A stretch of DNA of 64,000 nucleotides from an uncultured Candidatus Saccharibacteria bacterium. Its GTDB lineage: Bacteria > Patescibacteriota > Minisyncoccia > Phycocordibacterales > PALSA-1337. Under the pieces are notes generated by a model, which saw only the letters and a program-made list of their open reading frames with translations, made no database searches and was not told the origin of the DNA. Made by a program: the position numbers and the translations under genes. This document shows, one piece after another, positions 10,608 to 36,069 of the stretch (positions within the stretch are counted from its first letter, which is position 1; each line of letters opens with the position of its first letter). The stretch covers positions 17,995 through 81,994 of the forward strand of contig CAYPPJ010000001.1 in the NCBI GenBank assembly GCA_964412585.1. The letters are read 5' to 3'.

Positions 10608-10650
10608 GAAGCACAAGAGATTAGTAATTAGTAACTAGAGATTAGAAAGC

Positions 10651-10679
10651 AAAAAATCGGGCGAGAGCCCGATTTTTTG
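10651..10679 (+). terminator. rho-independent terminator
   Basis: Stem ATCGGGC / GCCCGAT, loop GAGA, then TTTTTT. Confidence 0.7.
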
Positions 10680-10763
10680 GTTGACTGTAGAAGGGTGTTA
10701 TGGCAATCTTTGTTAAGGTTGAAATCAATAGCTACTCGCCAAAGAGTGAAAGGAATTACGAGT

Positions 10764-15439: not shown

Positions 15440-18400
15440 ATGACAACTCAAATCAAAAAGACAACAGATCCAGCACAGTTCGACATCGTCAAGCTGTCGC
15501 TCGCATCACCTGACAAGATCCTCGAATGGTCATACGGCGAAGTCACCAAGCCAGAAACCATCAACTATCGTACACAGCGATCTGAAAAGAGCGGTCTCTT
15601 CGACGAACGTATCTTTGGTCCAGACCGTGACTATGAGTGTTACTGTGGAAAATACCGTGGTATTCGCTACAAGGGCATCGTCTGTGAAAAATGTGGCGTT
15701 GAAATAACTCGCTCAATTGTTCGCCGTGAACGCATGGGTCACATTGAGCTTGCCTCACCGGTATCTCATATTTGGTTCCTCCGTTCAGTTCCATCACGCA
15801 TTGGCCTTATTCTCGGCATGACTACCGCTGATCTCGAGAAGGTCGTTTACTTTGCTGGCTATATTGTCACCAAGGTCAACGAATCAGAACGCGATTCATT
15901 CCTCAAAGAACTTGACGGGGAATACAAGAGCAAGGTCAAGACTGCTCAGGATGACAAGACAAAGGAGGCCCTCAAGGAGCTTGTCGTCAGTGCTCGTAAA
16001 GAGATTGAGAGCTTGACGCCAGGTATGGTTATGGACGAAGCAAGCTACCACAAATTTGCTATGAAGTACGGCTCGCTTTTCGAAGCTGGCATTGGTGCTG
16101 AGATTGTCTACGAATTGCTGAAGAAGATTGATCTCGCCAAGCTCAAGACTGAGCTCGAAGGATATCTTGAAAATGCCGGTGCCGCGGACCGTGAGAAACT
16201 CTCGAAGCGTCTGTCATTGGTCAAACAGATGATCAAGGCAAAGATGCGTCCTGAATGGATGTTCCTTATCCGTATTCCAGTTATTCCGCCTGGCATCCGC
16301 CCGATGGTAGCTCTTGATGGTGGTCGCTATGCTACCTCAGATGTGAACGACCTCTATCGTCGTGTTATCAACCGCAACAATCGTCTGTTGAAACTCAAGG
16401 AGATCAACGCGCCAGAAGTCATTCTTCGCAACGAAAAGCGTATTCTCCAAGAGGCCGTTGATGCCCTTATCGACAACTCGATTCGTCATAGCTCATCAGC
16501 CGGTGCCGCTGCAGCTGCCGCACAAAAGCGCGCGCTTAAGTCACTTTCAGACAGCCTCAAGTCAAAGCGCGGTCTTTTTCGCCAGAACTTGCTCGGTAAG
16601 CGCGTGGACTACTCAGGTCGTTCGGTGATCGTGGTTGGTCCAGAGCTCAAGCTTGACCAGTGTGGTTTGCCAAAGCACATGGCTCTCGAATTGTTCCGCC
16701 CATTTATTATCTCAGGTCTCTTGAAAAAAGAGTTGGCCTACAACATCCGTGGTGCAAATCGTCTGATTGATGATGGTGCCAAGGAAGTCTGGGAAATTCT
16801 CGAAGAAGTTATTGCTAATAAGTACGTTCTCTTGAACCGTGCTCCTACTTTGCACCGCCTCGGTATTCAGGCGTTTCGTCCTATTCTTATTGAAGGTAAT
16901 GCTATTCAAGTTCACCCACTCGTCTGTACGGCATTCAACGCTGACTTCGATGGTGACCAGATGGCTGTTCACGTGCCATTGTCAGATGAGGCACAGCTTG
17001 AAGCAAAGATGATCATGGCTTCAGACAAAAATATTTTGAAGCCAGGTAACAATGATCCTACAGTCGTTGCCAAGTTGCTCGATATTGTCCTCGGATGTTT
17101 CTGGGTCACCAAGGTTATTGATGGCGCACAGGGTACTGGCAAGATCTTCGAATCACCAGATGCAGCTATCTTGGCTCATAGCTTTGGCGACATCGATCTT
17201 CGTGCAAAGGTCAAAGTTCTTGCGCCGAAGACTGCAAAATTTGCAAAATTCAAGGAAGGTTTGTTCGAGACGACAGTTGGTCGTATCCTCCTCAACAATG
17301 TATTGCCGGTTGACTATGCGTTCATCAACGAAGAGACCGGACGCAAGCGCATTGCTGCCATCATTGATGATATGATCACTCTTCACGGTGCAGAAAATGT
17401 TGCGCCGATTCTGGACAAGATCAAGTCATTTGGATTCCATTACGCCACATTCTCAGGAACTACCTGGGGTATCGATGACATTGTTATTCCAGAGGCAAAA
17501 TATGACATCATCAAGAAGGGTAAGGAGAAGGCGGATACCGTCACTCAGCAGTTCAACGAAGGTCTCCTTACTGAAGAAGAGCGCGTTCGTAAGCATATTG
17601 AGATTTGGCAGCATGCAAAGGGTGAAGTTGAAAAAACTATCCCAGGTTCGCTCGACAAGAACGGATCTGTCTATGACATGGTCAACTCAGGTGCTCGTGG
17701 TTCGCTTTCTCAGATCACAATCATGGCAGGTATGAAGGGTCTTATTGCCTCAGTTTCGGGTGATACTATCGAGTTCCCGATTCTCTCATGTGCAAAAGAA
17801 GGTTTGACTCCGATTGAGTACTTCATTACTACTCACGGTTCTCGCAAGGGTCTCACGGATACTGCTCTCAACACCGCAAAGGCTGGATATCTCACCCGTA
17901 AGCTCTTCGTGGTCGCACAGGATGTTGTTGTTTCAGAAGACGACTGTGGTACAAAGGACTCTATTGTTATCCGACGCCAGACTGCTTCAGGTATGGCTAT
18001 TCCACTCTCAAAGAACATTCGTGGCCGCGTTCTTGCAGAAGAAGTAAAGGGTATGGATGGTAAGGTTCTCTTTGAAAAAGGCCATCTCCTCTCAAAGGCT
18101 GATGCTGCTGCAGTAGAAGAGGCAGGCACAGTTGATGTACGTGTTCGCTCACCATTGTCATGCAAGACTATCCGTGGCGTGTGTGGTCAGTGTTACGGTC
18201 TCGATCTCGGTAAGAACAAGCTCGTTGATCTTGGTGAAGCAGTCGGTACTGTTGCCGCACAAGCTATCGGTGAACCAGGAACTCAGCTCACCATGCGTAC
18301 CTTCCACGCTGGTGGTGCCGCATCACAAGGTGGAGATATTACTCAAGGTTTGCCTCGTGTCGAGGAAATCTTTGAGAAGCGTCGTCCAAAGAACCCAGCC

Positions 18401-19114: not shown

Positions 19115-19133
19115 GTCTAACCTACTTCTATAC

Positions 19134-19163
19134 AAAAAACCGCTCAAGTTGGGCGGTTTTTTG
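19134..19163 (+). terminator. rho-independent terminator after rpoC
   Basis: Stem AAAACCGC / GCGGTTTT, then TTTT. Confidence 0.65.
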
Positions 19164-20047: not shown

Positions 20048-21022
20048 ATGCGAAAAATAATTATCAAAGAGGGACCACTTGTGTTCCTCCGAAATGTCCT
20101 ATCGATGGAAATCATCGCGGCCCTGTTCTTTTTCGGGCTCTCCTTTGCGGGCAATTATAGCGCTGCATACAGCAATTGGGGTTTGTCCAGATACGTTCGA
20201 TTTGATCTTTTTGAAATATATTTATTTTCGGCTTTTCAACTTGTTTACTTGGCTTTGCTCTTTCTTGATTGGTATTTCACTCACTACGAAATTAATGACA
20301 AAGAGATCATTCGTAAATCAGGTTTATTGTTCCGCCGGCGCAAATCAGTCAGTCTGGGAGATGTTGCATCGGTAGAGACATACCAATCGCCGATCAGTCG
20401 TCTGATGTCGCATGCCACTATCATCCTTGAGCATAGCAATGGGCGCATGACCAAGATCAAGAATGTGAGTGCCTTCGATGAATACGTGCACGTGATCAAG
20501 GGTATGGTTCAGAGTGCTTCAGGTCGTATCATGACTCGGGATCCGCGTGTTCTGTTGGAAAAAGGAGAAAGTGCCTATGTCGAGTTTAAAGAGACGATGC
20601 GCTATGATGCTCGCAAAGGGGAGATCAGTAAAGAATTGGAGAAGATGGTCCTAAAAACAATTGCTTCGTTTTTGAATGCCGATGGCGGTACATTGCTCAT
20701 CGGGGTAAATGATGAGGGTAAAGCTGTCGGACTTGCCAATGACTACAAAACGCTTACCAAGAAAAATCGTGATGGCTTTGAGAATCATTTGACCATGTTG
20801 GTCAAAACACAGATTGGTCTTGCGTTTGCAAAATACGTGAGTGTCGCGTTTGAGACGATAGAGGGCAATGATATCTGTGTGGTTTCAGTAAAGGAGGGAC
20901 ACAAGCCGGCCTATGTGATGAATGGTGACAAAAAAGAGGATTTCTTTGTGAGGGTAGGGAATTCGACACAACCTTTTTCGATGAGTGAGGCAGAGGAGTA
21001 TATAAAGACACATTGGAAGTAG
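20048..21022 (+). CDS. membrane-anchored fusion of a bacterial PH domain (bPH_2/YdbT-like) and an AlbA_2/Schlafen-type putative DNA-binding domain
   Basis: Two N-terminal TM helices; PH-like segment (EIIRKSGLLFRRRKSVSL..V); C-terminal ESAYVEFKETMRYD....ISKEL.K.IASFLNADGGTLLIGVNDEGKAVGL, the AlbA_2 hallmark. Confidence 0.5.
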   Translation: MRKIIIKEGPLVFLRNVLSMEIIAALFFFGLSFAGNYSAAYSNWGLSRYVRFDLFEIYLFSAFQLVYLALLFLDWYFTHYEINDKEIIRKSGLLFRRRKSVSLGDVASVETYQSPISRLMSHATIILEHSNGRMTKIKNVSAFDEYVHVIKGMVQSASGRIMTRDPRVLLEKGESAYVEFKETMRYDARKGEISKELEKMVLKTIASFLNADGGTLLIGVNDEGKAVGLANDYKTLTKKNRDGFENHLTMLVKTQIGLAFAKYVSVAFETIEGNDICVVSVKEGHKPAYVMNGDKKEDFFVRVGNSTQPFSMSEAEEYIKTHWK

Positions 21023-34440: not shown

Positions 34441-34947
34441 ATGGAACCATCAACAGGTATCAAGACATGGCAGTGGGTAGTCACCGTCATAGTCATCATT
34501 GTCCTTATCATTGTAGGTATTCTTGTCTTTGGCAATGGCAAAGAGACTACTGAAGAAGGTCTGACTACCGAGACTCCAACAACCGAAACTGTAGCTTCGA
34601 CTGAGGCAAACCGCATAGTCATGAGTGATCAGTTCCCAGGAAACGTTGTATTCCTCTCATCAGTTCAGCTCGCCAATAGCGGCTGGGTTGTGATCCACAA
34701 GGATAACAATGGCGTTCCGGGCGAAATCATCGGATCTCAGTATTTTGAGAAGGGTATCAACACTGGCAAGATCACATTGACCAAGCCGACAGTTGAAGGT
34801 GCATTGTACTACGCTATGCTCCATTCAGATGATGGCGACAAAAAGTTTGACGCCGCAAAGGACCTTCCTCTCAAAAATGCAAAGGGAGATGTTATCATGA
34901 AGCCGTTCCGTGCGTCAGCTGCAGTCGGTGCAGGACTCAAGGGATAA
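34441..34947 (+). CDS. hypothetical N-terminally anchored exported protein
   Basis: TM helix, then Thr/Glu-rich linker; no motif recognised. Confidence 0.4.
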   Translation: MEPSTGIKTWQWVVTVIVIIVLIIVGILVFGNGKETTEEGLTTETPTTETVASTEANRIVMSDQFPGNVVFLSSVQLANSGWVVIHKDNNGVPGEIIGSQYFEKGINTGKITLTKPTVEGALYYAMLHSDDGDKKFDAAKDLPLKNAKGDVIMKPFRASAAVGAGLKG

Positions 34948-34955
34948 TAGATTAG

Positions 34956-35077
34956 AAGCAAGTACGCAAAATACGTGGGATTCGGATACGCGGATACTTT
35001 TCTACTGAAAAGTTCCTATGCTCGGCCTCATCGGCCTCCGCAATGTATCCTCACCCACGTATTTTGCGTACTTGCTT
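34956..35077. repeat. 122-bp element bounded by a perfect 24-bp inverted repeat (AAGCAAGTACGCAAAATACGTGGG / CCCACGTATTTTGCGTACTTGCTT); the 74-bp core has nested hairpins
   Basis: Arms at 34956-34979 and 35054-35077 are exact reverse complements. The core has GGATAC..GTATCC and CTTTTC tact GAAAAG sub-stems. Confidence 0.85.
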
Positions 35078-35100
35078 CGTTACTTGGTATACTTAGTCGC

Positions 35101-36069
35101 ATGAAGAACATTTATATTACTCGTCAGATTCCTGAAATAGCGGTAGAGATGCTGCGTGCAAAAGGATATTCCATAGATATGAATATGAAAGAGGCTGTCC
35201 CTTCCCAGGCCGATATTATTGAGGCCCTACAACGTAAACCATACGATGCAGTTATTACGTTACTCACTGATAAAATTAATTCCAAGATTTTTGACGCAGT
35301 TCCACATATAAAGTTATTTGCTAACTACGCAACTGGTTTTGATAATATAGATATTGTCGAGGCAAAAAAGCGAGGTATTTTGGTGACGAATACACCAGGC
35401 AATTACGCTTATTGTATTGCAGAGCACGCTATAGCCCTCATGATCGGCCTTACAACACGAATGGTCGAAGCAGACTCGTTTGTTCGTGCGGGAAAATATC
35501 AAGGTTGGGATCCGATGTTGTTTGTTGGTACAGATCTTGAAAAGAAAACTCTTGGCCTCATTGGTGCCGGCAGAATAGGGGAAAGAGTCGCTCATCATGC
35601 ATCTCGTGGGTTTGATATGCCTGTGATCTATTATGATGTGGTCAGAAATGAAAAGATTGAAAAAGAGTATGGTGCAAAATATTACCCGAAAGTTGAAGAT
35701 GTCCTCAAGCTTGCCGATGTGGTGAGTTTGCATGTGCCATTACTCGATTCGACCCGACACCTCATCAATGATGCTTGTCTGAAAATGATGAAGCCAGGCG
35801 CCTTTTTGATCAATACAGCCCGCGGCCCAGTTGTCGATGAAAAAGCACTGGTCAAAGCACTTCAGCGCGGAACTATTCGTGGCGCAGGCTTGGATGTCTT
35901 TGAACTTGAACCAAAGCTAGCCGAGGGTCTGGCAGAGCTCCCTAATGTCATTTTGACGCCTCATATAGCATCTGCACGTGAGTCTGCTCGAAATGAGATG
36001 GCAAAAGTGGCTGCAGAAAATGTTATAGAGTTTGTGGAAAAAGGGACGGTAAAAAATCTCGTATATTGA
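35101..36069 (+). CDS. D-isomer-specific 2-hydroxyacid dehydrogenase (glycerate dehydrogenase / hydroxypyruvate reductase-like)
   Basis: NAD-binding GLIGAGRIG, catalytic R/E/H positions; start set at MKNIYIT. Confidence 0.75.
   Translation: MKNIYITRQIPEIAVEMLRAKGYSIDMNMKEAVPSQADIIEALQRKPYDAVITLLTDKINSKIFDAVPHIKLFANYATGFDNIDIVEAKKRGILVTNTPGNYAYCIAEHAIALMIGLTTRMVEADSFVRAGKYQGWDPMLFVGTDLEKKTLGLIGAGRIGERVAHHASRGFDMPVIYYDVVRNEKIEKEYGAKYYPKVEDVLKLADVVSLHVPLLDSTRHLINDACLKMMKPGAFLINTARGPVVDEKALVKALQRGTIRGAGLDVFELEPKLAEGLAELPNVILTPHIASARESARNEMAKVAAENVIEFVEKGTVKNLVY

Follow-up and report, generated by a model that had tools for sequence, protein, structure and literature searches.

A palindromic element with a folded core at the terminator position between two genes of a Taylorbacteria-like Paceibacterium

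Introduction

Among the small palindromic elements of bacterial intergenic regions are the Correia elements, whose terminal inverted repeats measure about 26 bp, and the ERIC (or IRU) sequences, which are imperfect palindromes of about 127 bp found in enterobacteria. RNase III takes as its substrate uninterrupted double-stranded RNA of 20 bp or more, about two helical turns. Correia elements, the first described copy of which is 204 bp, and SPRITE are palindromes resembling MITEs (transposable elements of miniature size with inverted repeats) and give promoters, RNase III sites and terminator-like hairpins, and ERIC affects mRNA stability (PMC10969869). Here, we describe a palindromic element of 124 bp found in a stretch of 64,000 nucleotides (contig CAYPPJ010000001.1, hereafter the window), which is a core chromosomal region of a Taylorbacteria-like Paceibacterium of the Patescibacteria, or candidate phyla radiation (CPR). 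The element lies between a gene encoding a DUF7282 protein and a gene encoding a dehydrogenase.

We regard the element, with moderate confidence, as a laterally acquired palindromic module serving as the 3′-end, or terminator, hairpin of the DUF7282 gene. The element stands exactly where relatives keep the intrinsic terminator of the upstream gene, a coincidence that a first-pass annotation of the same DNA had missed. It belongs to what is apparently a small and undescribed family of structured non-coding intergenic elements in Paceibacteria, and full-text searches of the literature found no paper on such elements in CPR bacteria. The new features are a conserved, covarying three-way-junction core combined with long stems that are not conserved, a patchy lateral distribution and the replacement of a conserved terminator. 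Related loci and contigs are indicated below by L numbers.

Replacement of a Conserved Terminator

The DUF7282-dehydrogenase gene pair is kept without the element in 12 species (L021, L023, L024, L025, L026, L034, L036, L037, L038, L041, L044 and L118), and all 12 carry an intrinsic terminator at the site. Ten of these terminators are plain hairpins formed by an A-tract, a GC stem and a T-run (e.g., ACAAAAAGAGCCGCGGAAATGCGGCTTTTTTGT); that of L026 is elongated and contains G.U pairs, and that of L041 has a short A-run only. The terminators of L021, L023, L024 and L025 are clearly homologous to one another and have a close variant in L036, L037 and L044, where the sequence reads CAAAAGAG-TCG...CTCTTTTG; the other plain hairpins vary this sequence. 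No canonical terminator is present at the site in any of the three element-bearing species (the window species, L035 and L116). The element and the canonical terminator are, at this site, mutually exclusive.

Past the stop codon the window keeps the first few bases, TAATAGAT, which L025 also has, and it keeps those immediately preceding the -10 box of the next gene; about 65 nt including the terminator have been replaced by the element, rather than the element having been added. The arms of the window element are unrelated to the terminator of the relatives, so that insertion of the core into the loop of an ancestral terminator, a route supported for L096 when compared with L081, is unsupported here. 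Because the nearest relatives (L021, L023, L024 and L025) share a homologous terminator, the window lineage most likely had one and lost it on gaining the element.

As for the origin of the element, the most likely event, judging from sequence comparison, would be the lateral acquisition of a segment of about 140 nt, comprising the element and promoter-proximal bases, from a relative of the L035/L116 clade. In the tree of the dehydrogenase enzyme the window groups with its nearer relatives, and the L035 clade falls outside this group; the right flank of the window element (CTTGGTATACTT) is of the type found in the L035 clade (L035, L116 and the element-free L118), whereas the window's own clade has CGCTATA(C/A)T; and the window core is as close to the L116 core as the L035 core is, despite the larger distance between the hosts. 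A less likely history would be that of an ancient element lost repeatedly.

Further structures occur at the same intergenic site. The DUF7282 terminator of L026 (L026:9880-9945) is a hairpin of about 26 bp whose non-Watson-Crick pairs are all G.U on the + strand only, a pattern that reads as a clear RNA-level signature, in contrast to the window element, whose stem is all Watson-Crick. In the closest GTDB relative (L021:4520-4870, the same as L031, JAHFMB010000007.1, Candidatus Taylorbacteria nzgw447), and also in L022, the site holds an extra stretch of about 350 nt, strongly folding, flanked on both sides by a canonical terminator and immediately preceding the dehydrogenase promoter; it has no Rfam match at E up to 1 and may be a small RNA gene. 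Finally, two Logan contigs of the L035 clade (L114:1-65 and L115:1-59) begin about 60 nt before the dehydrogenase ATG, inside another small palindrome, ATTCCCGC-GAAG-GCGGGAAT or its complement; therefore, those strains have another kind of hairpin at the site, where the assemblies break.

Anatomy and Fold of the Element

The first-pass annotation had reported perfect terminal inverted repeats of 24 bp. These are confirmed and are one base longer in each arm: the arms (34955-34979 and 35054-35078) measure 25 nt each, are 100% complementary and enclose 74 nt, delimiting a non-coding palindromic unit at 34955-35078. Among all of the inverted repeats of the window this is the longest, and no other comes close. 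The stem begins 7 nt after the stop codon of the upstream gene (34945-34947), and the ATG of the downstream gene, at 35101, lies 22 nt past its end. RNA folding of the region gives -73 kcal/mol against -33.9 +/- 3.6 for shuffled sequences (z = -10.8).

In both the single-sequence fold and RNAalifold the 74-nt core is a three-way junction. The 25-bp outer stem (P1) is followed by a short internal loop and by an 11-bp helix (P2), consisting of GGATAC/GTATCC and GCGGA/TCCGC with an AAT bulge, within which two hairpins (hp1 and hp2) are joined by a 10-nt linker. The GGATAC/GTATCC pairing, the CTTTTC-tact-GAAAAG hairpin and the direct repeats that had been noticed earlier are all present in the core, the direct repeats (CGGATAC and TCGGCCTC, each occurring twice) being by-products of its helices. 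The parts of the element are as follows.

34955..34979, + strand: 5′ arm of P1, GAAGCAAGTACGCAAAATACGTGGG, a 25-nt perfect inverted repeat
34967-34972, + strand: A-tract CAAAAT of the P1 5′ arm
34973-34979, + strand: inner GC clamp ACGTGGG of the P1 5′ arm
34980..34983, + strand: P1/P2 junction ATTC, the same in L035 and also found in L096; TTC in L116
34984..34994, + strand: 5′ strand of P2, GGATAC and GCGGA, pairing with 35045-35050 and 35037-35041 (fold, RNAalifold and pair counts)
34996..35013, + strand: hp1, AU-rich hairpin ACTTTTC-TACT-GAAAAGT, with two compensated pairs among orthologues
35014..35023, + strand: single-stranded linker TCCTATGCTC, identical in the window, L035 and L116
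35024..35036, + strand: hp2, GC hairpin GGCC-TCATC-GGCC, with a compensated change from C-G to G-C in L035
35037..35053, + strand: 3′ strand of P2, TCCGC, AAT bulge and GTATCC, then junction TCA (fold, pair counts and RNAalifold)
35054..35078, + strand: 3′ arm of P1, CCCACGTATTTTGCGTACTTGCTTC, a 25-nt perfect inverted repeat
35054-35060, + strand: GC clamp CCCACGT of the P1 3′ arm
35060-35066, + strand: U-tract-like TATTTTG of the P1 3′ arm
35064-35069, + strand: -35-like TTGCGT of the P1 3′ arm, 18 nt upstream of the -10 box

Within the 3′ arm of P1, which may be read as part of a promoter as well as of a terminator, TTTTGC(G/A)TACTTGC is kept in L035 and L116. The element is contained in 17 full-length contigs assembled independently (JGI and Logan, from different samples and with different assemblers) and is therefore not an assembly artefact. 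A search against Rfam 15 gave nothing at gathering score in the window except a tRNA, and the element remained without match when E was raised to 10; those of L035, L096, L064 and L070, searched at E up to 1, were likewise without match, except for a spurious hit to a miRNA precursor.

An open reading frame (ORF) starting at a GTG (34975-36069) crosses the element, and the first-pass annotation had considered this reading-through fortuitous. In fact, the frame is non-coding across the element: the dehydrogenase start is placed at 35101 in all of the 22+ metagenome gene calls, and the L116 orthologue carries indels of 1 and 2 nt within the element, which, together with the pattern of paired substitutions described below, exclude coding.

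Compensatory Evolution in Strains and Orthologues

The search for the dehydrogenase returned 80 loci, which were scanned for long inverted repeats. L035 (Candidatus Paceibacterota, enzyme 79% identical) has perfect 25-nt arms and a 74-nt core at the same site, and the element is also present in a further relative, L116/L117 (86% to L035 and 79% to the window). The window and L035 differ at 14 of the 124 positions, 12 of which make up six fully compensated pairs and two of which fall in the hp1 loop. When 14 substitutions were placed at random 2,000,000 times, none of the placements struck at least six pairs on both sides, and all pairs remained intact in only 2e-6. With L116 included, eight pairs are compensated (five of the 25 in P1, two in hp1 and one in hp2) and none is changed on one side only; P2 is invariant, its 5′ strand being unchanged in all three orthologues. 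Pairing holds in 97.8% of the cells of this alignment, against 34-50% when the partners are slid by one to three columns, and RNAalifold independently gives the same 47 pairs. Furthermore, the element is 89% identical between the window and L035, against a DNA identity of 70-73% for the flanking genes. Compensation in three helices shows that the fold is maintained, by selection or by a palindrome-correcting mutational process, in line with the very stable RNA structure envisaged at first reading.

The element is present in all three strain groups of the window species. In one of them the substitutions C to A at 34959 and T to C at 35073 break two adjacent pairs, and a second group shows A to C at 34970. 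Parsimony makes the perfect stem the ancestral state; the three derived changes are all disruptive, all in P1 and none in the core. Over short periods, therefore, perfection of the stem is not enforced.

These data bear on two further explanations. The first, which we consider improbable, is that the palindrome is a mutational by-product, made and kept perfect by template switching (quasipalindrome correction), neutral or slightly selfish and without selected function, its paired changes being templated. Template switching during replication can make perfect stems and double "compensatory" changes in one step (PMC8794818), homogenises the arms of inverted repeats and inverts spacers (PMC8604942). 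All eight compensated pairs go from Watson-Crick to Watson-Crick with no G.U intermediates, a junction suggesting an inverted spacer is found in contig L018, and unrelated long perfect hairpins are common in these genomes. The process would nevertheless leave unexplained the homologous, asymmetric core at non-homologous loci in seven species, the excess identity of the 124 nt over the neighbouring genes and the exclusive replacement of the canonical terminator, and the three mismatches of the strains persist uncorrected.

The second, quite unlikely in our opinion, is an independent small non-coding RNA gene with a long closing stem, similar to Y RNA, 6S RNA or the RNA of the signal recognition particle, whose 5′ and 3′ ends would pair in that stem and whose junction would bind a protein or another RNA in trans. 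The compensatory changes in three helices and the junction nucleotides identical across three species would fit such a gene, which could also lie in either orientation, and in the window, L035 and L096 P1 is preceded, at a distance of 4-9 nt, by ATAAT-like boxes. However, in the window and L096 these strings are the upstream stop codons, they share no -35 sequence, and no terminator follows the stem; most close relatives lack the element, which argues against a housekeeping RNA, and the Rfam searches gave no match to it. Moreover, unpaired positions are not significantly more conserved than paired ones, two of the eight events being unpaired.

A Wider Family in Paceibacteria

A covariance model built from the window and L035 also matched L096 and, with filters off, L064, L070 and L023. 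On the two strands these four candidates score 49.6 versus 25.1, 44 versus 28, 28 versus 12 and 24 versus 11 bits; the strand difference is 13-24 bits for family members and 3.5 bits or less for control long hairpins (L044, L026, L065 and L047). Since unrelated long hairpins reach 25-40 bits, the raw score was rejected as evidence of homology, and strand asymmetry and the hp1-CTC-hp2 motif were used instead. In its strict form (a perfect AU-rich hairpin, a linker ending in CTC and a GC hairpin starting with GG) the motif, sought on both strands of about 1.25 Mb, occurs at exactly six loci, each of them within a long inverted repeat; this count excludes L116, which was added later and has an identical linker. 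With the motif relaxed, the scan returned five of these loci and no further one; the sixth, L023, lies outside its limits for the flanking repeat.

The family has seven members at the species level (the window species, L035, L116, L096, L064, L070 and L023), which have in common the order P1, P2, hp1, CUC, hp2. AU-rich hairpins equivalent to hp1 are present in L096, L064, L070 and L023, the linker ends in CTC in all members (with CTC before hp2 at all six strict-motif loci), and a GC hairpin equivalent to hp2 is found in every one. The P1 arms are 18-29 bp long and perfect or nearly so; in L096, L064, L070 and L023 they are unrelated to those of the window, and these four copies, more distant than the orthologues, occupy other intergenic sites. 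A family-wide MAFFT alignment is too poor to annotate, and the strand bias of G.U pairs was dropped as a test of the RNA strand, the members being contradictory.

The six motif loci all lie between co-directional genes, and in the four copies checked (window, L035, L064 and L070) the element ends just upstream of a -10 box and an ATG. Comparison with relatives reveals filled and empty sites. The 85% relative L081 has an intact small terminator-like hairpin, and it is in the apex of this hairpin that L096 carries the element. In L064 about 140 nt, consisting of the element and TTATAATTCATCCT, which includes the -10 box, have been inserted exactly between a stop codon and the next ATG, and in the empty sites of L104, L082 and L091 the same stop codon and ATG abut.

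A riboswitch or leader of the dehydrogenase gene was rejected as an explanation, the members adjoining unrelated genes in both orientations. The L023 copy lies in an integrated module (L023:15484-20400) encoding a 469-aa protein, small ORFs, a G2P-like Rep and a tyrosine integrase, bracketed by long imperfect inverted repeats at 15800-15973 (the family member) and 20159-20358. Its Rep is 81-83% identical to those of three IMG/VR contigs (L111-L113, 6.7-9.3 kb), all without the family element, and the idea that the element is the single-strand origin of a rolling-circle replicon, suggested by the position of this copy, was rejected on these grounds. Other long-stem elements were observed at L026:15909-16014 (the same as L033:11909-12014) and L044:3973-4078, with arms of 34 and 36 nt and loops of 38 and 34 nt, respectively; their arms are unrelated, those of L044 beginning with AAGCAAG, and TGTGCCAAGA is common to both loops. 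They may constitute a second family of terminator-position palindromes.

Copy Number, Mobility and Possible Inversion

Among the explanations first offered for the element was a MITE-like nature, with a genome-wide search for copies and for target-site duplications as the check. As far as it could be run, the search for copies did not bear it out. In the window the 24-mer occurs only as the two arms, even when three mismatches are allowed (shuffles expect 0), and the covariance model with filters off finds no second copy. Among 596 Gb of GTDB representative genomes the 19-mer of the arm finds no exact counterpart; its two matches in JGI metagenome contigs (L019 and L020), involving one arm only in unrelated sequence, are due to chance, as is the one match of an 18-mer in IMG/VR, which lies within a coding region. 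Core strings had no match in IMG/VR viral contigs in one scan and 13 in another, all by chance, since the following 57 nt agree with the core at 13-16 positions, the chance level. Comparison of the element with plasmids and phages by blastn gave no match, and a peptide search with the open frame across the element, for copies mis-called as ORFs, gave no candidate.

Target-site duplications gave a similar result. None is present at the window element, whose flanks are ...GATTA and GTTAC..., with TTA and TTA off by one base, nor in L035, L116, L096 or L070; only the L064 copy has TA on both sides. No transposase was seen among the window ORFs scanned or the neighbouring genes. A classical MITE, whose 25-bp terminal repeats would be bound by a transposase in trans and whose effect on transcription would be incidental, is therefore weighed as follows. 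What stands is a discrete palindromic module without coding capacity, of suitable size and with terminal inverted repeats, having relatives in other genomes, in both orientations, and a patchy distribution with filled and empty sites (L096/L081 and L064/L104, L082, L091); the TA on either side of the L064 copy and the location of the L023 copy inside an integrated Rep-integrase module point in the same direction. On the other hand, three features of a classical MITE are lacking, as there is no duplication, the ends are not shared and no transposase is seen. One copy is present in 64 kb, the element replaces a piece of DNA in the window rather than being added to it, and a core common to several loci with unrelated arms is the opposite of what ends recognised by a transposase would produce. 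This explanation is accordingly considered unlikely.

The unrelated arms raise another, tentative possibility, namely a new class of structured modules in CPR bacteria propagating their three-way-junction core rather than their terminal repeats, which we regard as rather doubtful. If true, it would imply either mobilisation without end-binding transposases, for example by hairpin- or single-stranded-DNA-dependent insertion at terminator apices or as terminator-promoter cassettes spread by transformation, or a new small RNA with a protein partner that has been placed repeatedly at gene ends.

The perfect arms could also make the element an inverton, in which the 74-nt core flips between the 25-bp repeats and changes the expression of a neighbouring gene. 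In one Logan contig, L018 (SRR23702486_188046), the sequence ends with the left flank, the left arm and TGAGG, the reverse complement of the right end of the core (L018:5729-5759, corresponding to window 34954-34984), where all other contigs have ATTCG; this junction may reflect a true inversion of the core in some of the population, but a fold-back chimera from library preparation could equally have produced its 5 nt. Both core orientations are found among family members, which in-situ inversion between perfect arms would explain, and Correia elements have been reported to invert (PMC10969869). Against this, all 17 full-length contigs are in the forward orientation, no invertase or recombinase is present among the genes up to 10 kb on either side or in the other window ORFs scanned, a spacer of 74 bp is very short for recombinase-mediated inversion, and there is no convincing promoter within the core. 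We therefore judge an inverton highly improbable.

Proposed Function at the End of the DUF7282 Gene

The role of a 3′-end hairpin is the best-supported function of the element because of its position, the loss of the terminator wherever it is present and the independent promoter downstream. In the mechanism that we propose, the module would have been acquired secondarily, replacing the canonical intrinsic terminator of the DUF7282 gene, and would act in cis on the DUF7282 transcript as its 3′-end hairpin. The inner GC clamp and the UAUUUUG in the 3′ arm could work as a terminator having the 74-nt core as its loop, whereas the full 25-bp stem could insulate the next gene, shield the 3′ end from exonucleases and serve as an RNase III substrate, and the dehydrogenase gene would start from its own -10 box, 9 nt past the stem. 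The sequences show the anatomy of the element, its conservation and compensatory evolution, its family membership, its patchy distribution and its mutual exclusion with the canonical terminator; transcription through it, termination or processing there and the route of acquisition are what we infer.

Several features agree with this proposal. As in a terminator, a stable GC-containing hairpin (-73 kcal/mol) lies at the gene end, 7 nt past the stop codon. The polarity of the stem is also terminator-like (CAAAAU, ACGUGGG, core, CCCACGU, AUUUUG), with UUUUG kept in all three orthologues, and the outer stem is composed like the bidirectional terminators that these genomes commonly carry. Were the + strand transcribed, the stem would present 25 uninterrupted Watson-Crick pairs, a double-stranded RNA long enough for RNase III, and the module is probably sensitive to this enzyme, a possibility that the first-pass annotation had raised.

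Other features weigh against the proposal. No U-tract follows the full stem (GUUACUUGG), AUUUUG being present only after the inner GC clamp, and a scan for the terminator consensus made no call at the element; moreover, its loop is a 74-nt three-way junction and not a short loop of 3-8 nt. In the absence of a U-tract past the stem, termination would have to take place within the 3′ arm with a structured loop of 74 nt, which is unusual. The core is in the sense direction relative to the genes at four of the six loci and antisense at two (L070 and L023), so that a strand-specific role of the core as RNA is not general. Perfect pairing is not strictly required, since three disruptive P1 substitutions segregate uncorrected within the species and P1 of L116 has one mismatch and one bulge. 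The all-Watson-Crick changes, which template switching can produce in one step, fit maintenance at the DNA level as well as selection on RNA. Finally, the mutual exclusion with the terminator amounts to about two independent gains only, because L035 and L116 are related.

The genomes of CPR bacteria are tiny and tightly packed, and their non-coding elements are almost unexplored. The family described here is concrete and alignable, with a consensus fold and compensated base pairs, and its members recur where two transcription units meet. A terminator otherwise kept across a dozen species was displaced by the element in at least one lineage, and in L064 the insertion separated two genes that had abutted and were probably co-translated, making them distinct units and adding a -10 box. 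If the role as terminator or insulator is true, operon structure would be rewired by small lateral cassettes in organisms almost without classical mobile DNA; if it is false, the conserved core would point to a new RNA function or to a new route for moving DNA. The window species, in addition, is abundant in groundwater and freshwater data sets.

Genomic Context

The window encodes aminoacyl-tRNA synthetases, RpoA, DnaK/GrpE/DnaJ, FtsW, MurG, ScpAB and a type IV pilus. The names on matching proteins and related contigs are Candidatus Taylorbacteria, Paceibacterota or Parcubacteria, and the enzyme adjacent to the element is 95% identical in the nearest GTDB representative. The features flanking the element are the following.

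34441..34947, + strand: upstream gene, DUF7282 protein of 168 aa (Pfam PF23951, E 1.7e-14), called in 22 contigs
35085..35093, + strand: TGG and TATACT, an extended -10-like box at 7 nt from the ATG and probably the dehydrogenase gene's own promoter
35101..36069, + strand: downstream gene, D-isomer 2-hydroxyacid dehydrogenase of the glyoxylate reductase / D-glycerate dehydrogenase type (Pfam PF02826 and PF00389; source names)

Past the stem the sequence reads GTTACTTGG, TATACT (35088-35093), 7 nt and ATG; all relatives, including those that lack the element, have a TATACT/TATAAT box 7-11 nt ahead of the dehydrogenase ATG. A strict two-hexamer promoter scan did not call the box at 35085-35093. 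Since this -10 box recurs in every relative with its distance from the ATG unchanged, the dehydrogenase gene appears to have its own promoter, probably with a leaderless-type layout. A TATAAT/TATACT box about 7 nt before an ATG without Shine-Dalgarno sequence, seen in the window at 35085-35103 and at the same site in L021-L026, L032-L038, L041, L044, L116 and L118, also occurs at L064:10739-10756, L070:4311-4329 and L096:1097-1125(-), which suggests that leaderless transcripts are the rule for the genes concerned.

Ordinary terminators are found elsewhere in the window genome (e.g., 10647-10682 and 19133-19163). In an otherwise housekeeping stretch, at 20048-21022 and adjoining truB, the window encodes a 324-aa protein with a bacterial PH domain and a Schlafen/AlbA_2 domain, which may be defence-related.

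Comparison With Known Systems

The ERIC (IRU) sequences and the Rickettsia palindromic elements resemble the element in size class, in being intergenic transcribed palindromes and in their patchy occurrence at orthologous sites. They differ from it in having a whole-length consensus and many copies, and they show no sequence similarity to it. The element is not known to resemble the Correia repeat either, and the comparison with it is one of analogy only.

The Correia elements of Neisseria (CREE / NEMIS) are likewise intergenic palindromes, of roughly 100-200 bp, with long terminal inverted repeats. They form long hairpins when transcribed, occur in both orientations, supply or abut promoters, have their paired repeats cut by RNase III and can invert (PMC10969869). 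In contrast to the window element, they belong to a different phylum and number hundreds of nearly identical copies in each genome, their repeats being conserved and accompanied by a TA duplication, whereas the element has one copy in 64 kb, repeats that differ between loci, a conserved core and no consistent duplication, that of TA being absent at the window site. SPRITE are small, dispersed non-coding repeats with stable folds, also terminator-like at gene ends (PMC10969869; in part, PMC3049150), but they are multicopy and have the canonical terminator shape, unlike an element that holds a 74-nt three-way-junction core in its stem.

The remaining comparison is with the bidirectional terminators of the same genomes, which also lie between a stop codon and the next -10 box and have the same polarity, from A-tract and GC clamp to GC clamp and T-tract; in the relatives, perfect arms of 18-24 nt are common. 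The loop of an ordinary terminator measures 2-6 nt, and its stem is immediately followed by a T-run, whereas in the window element the loop is a conserved, folded sequence of 74 nt and the stem extends 11 bp beyond the A/T tracts.

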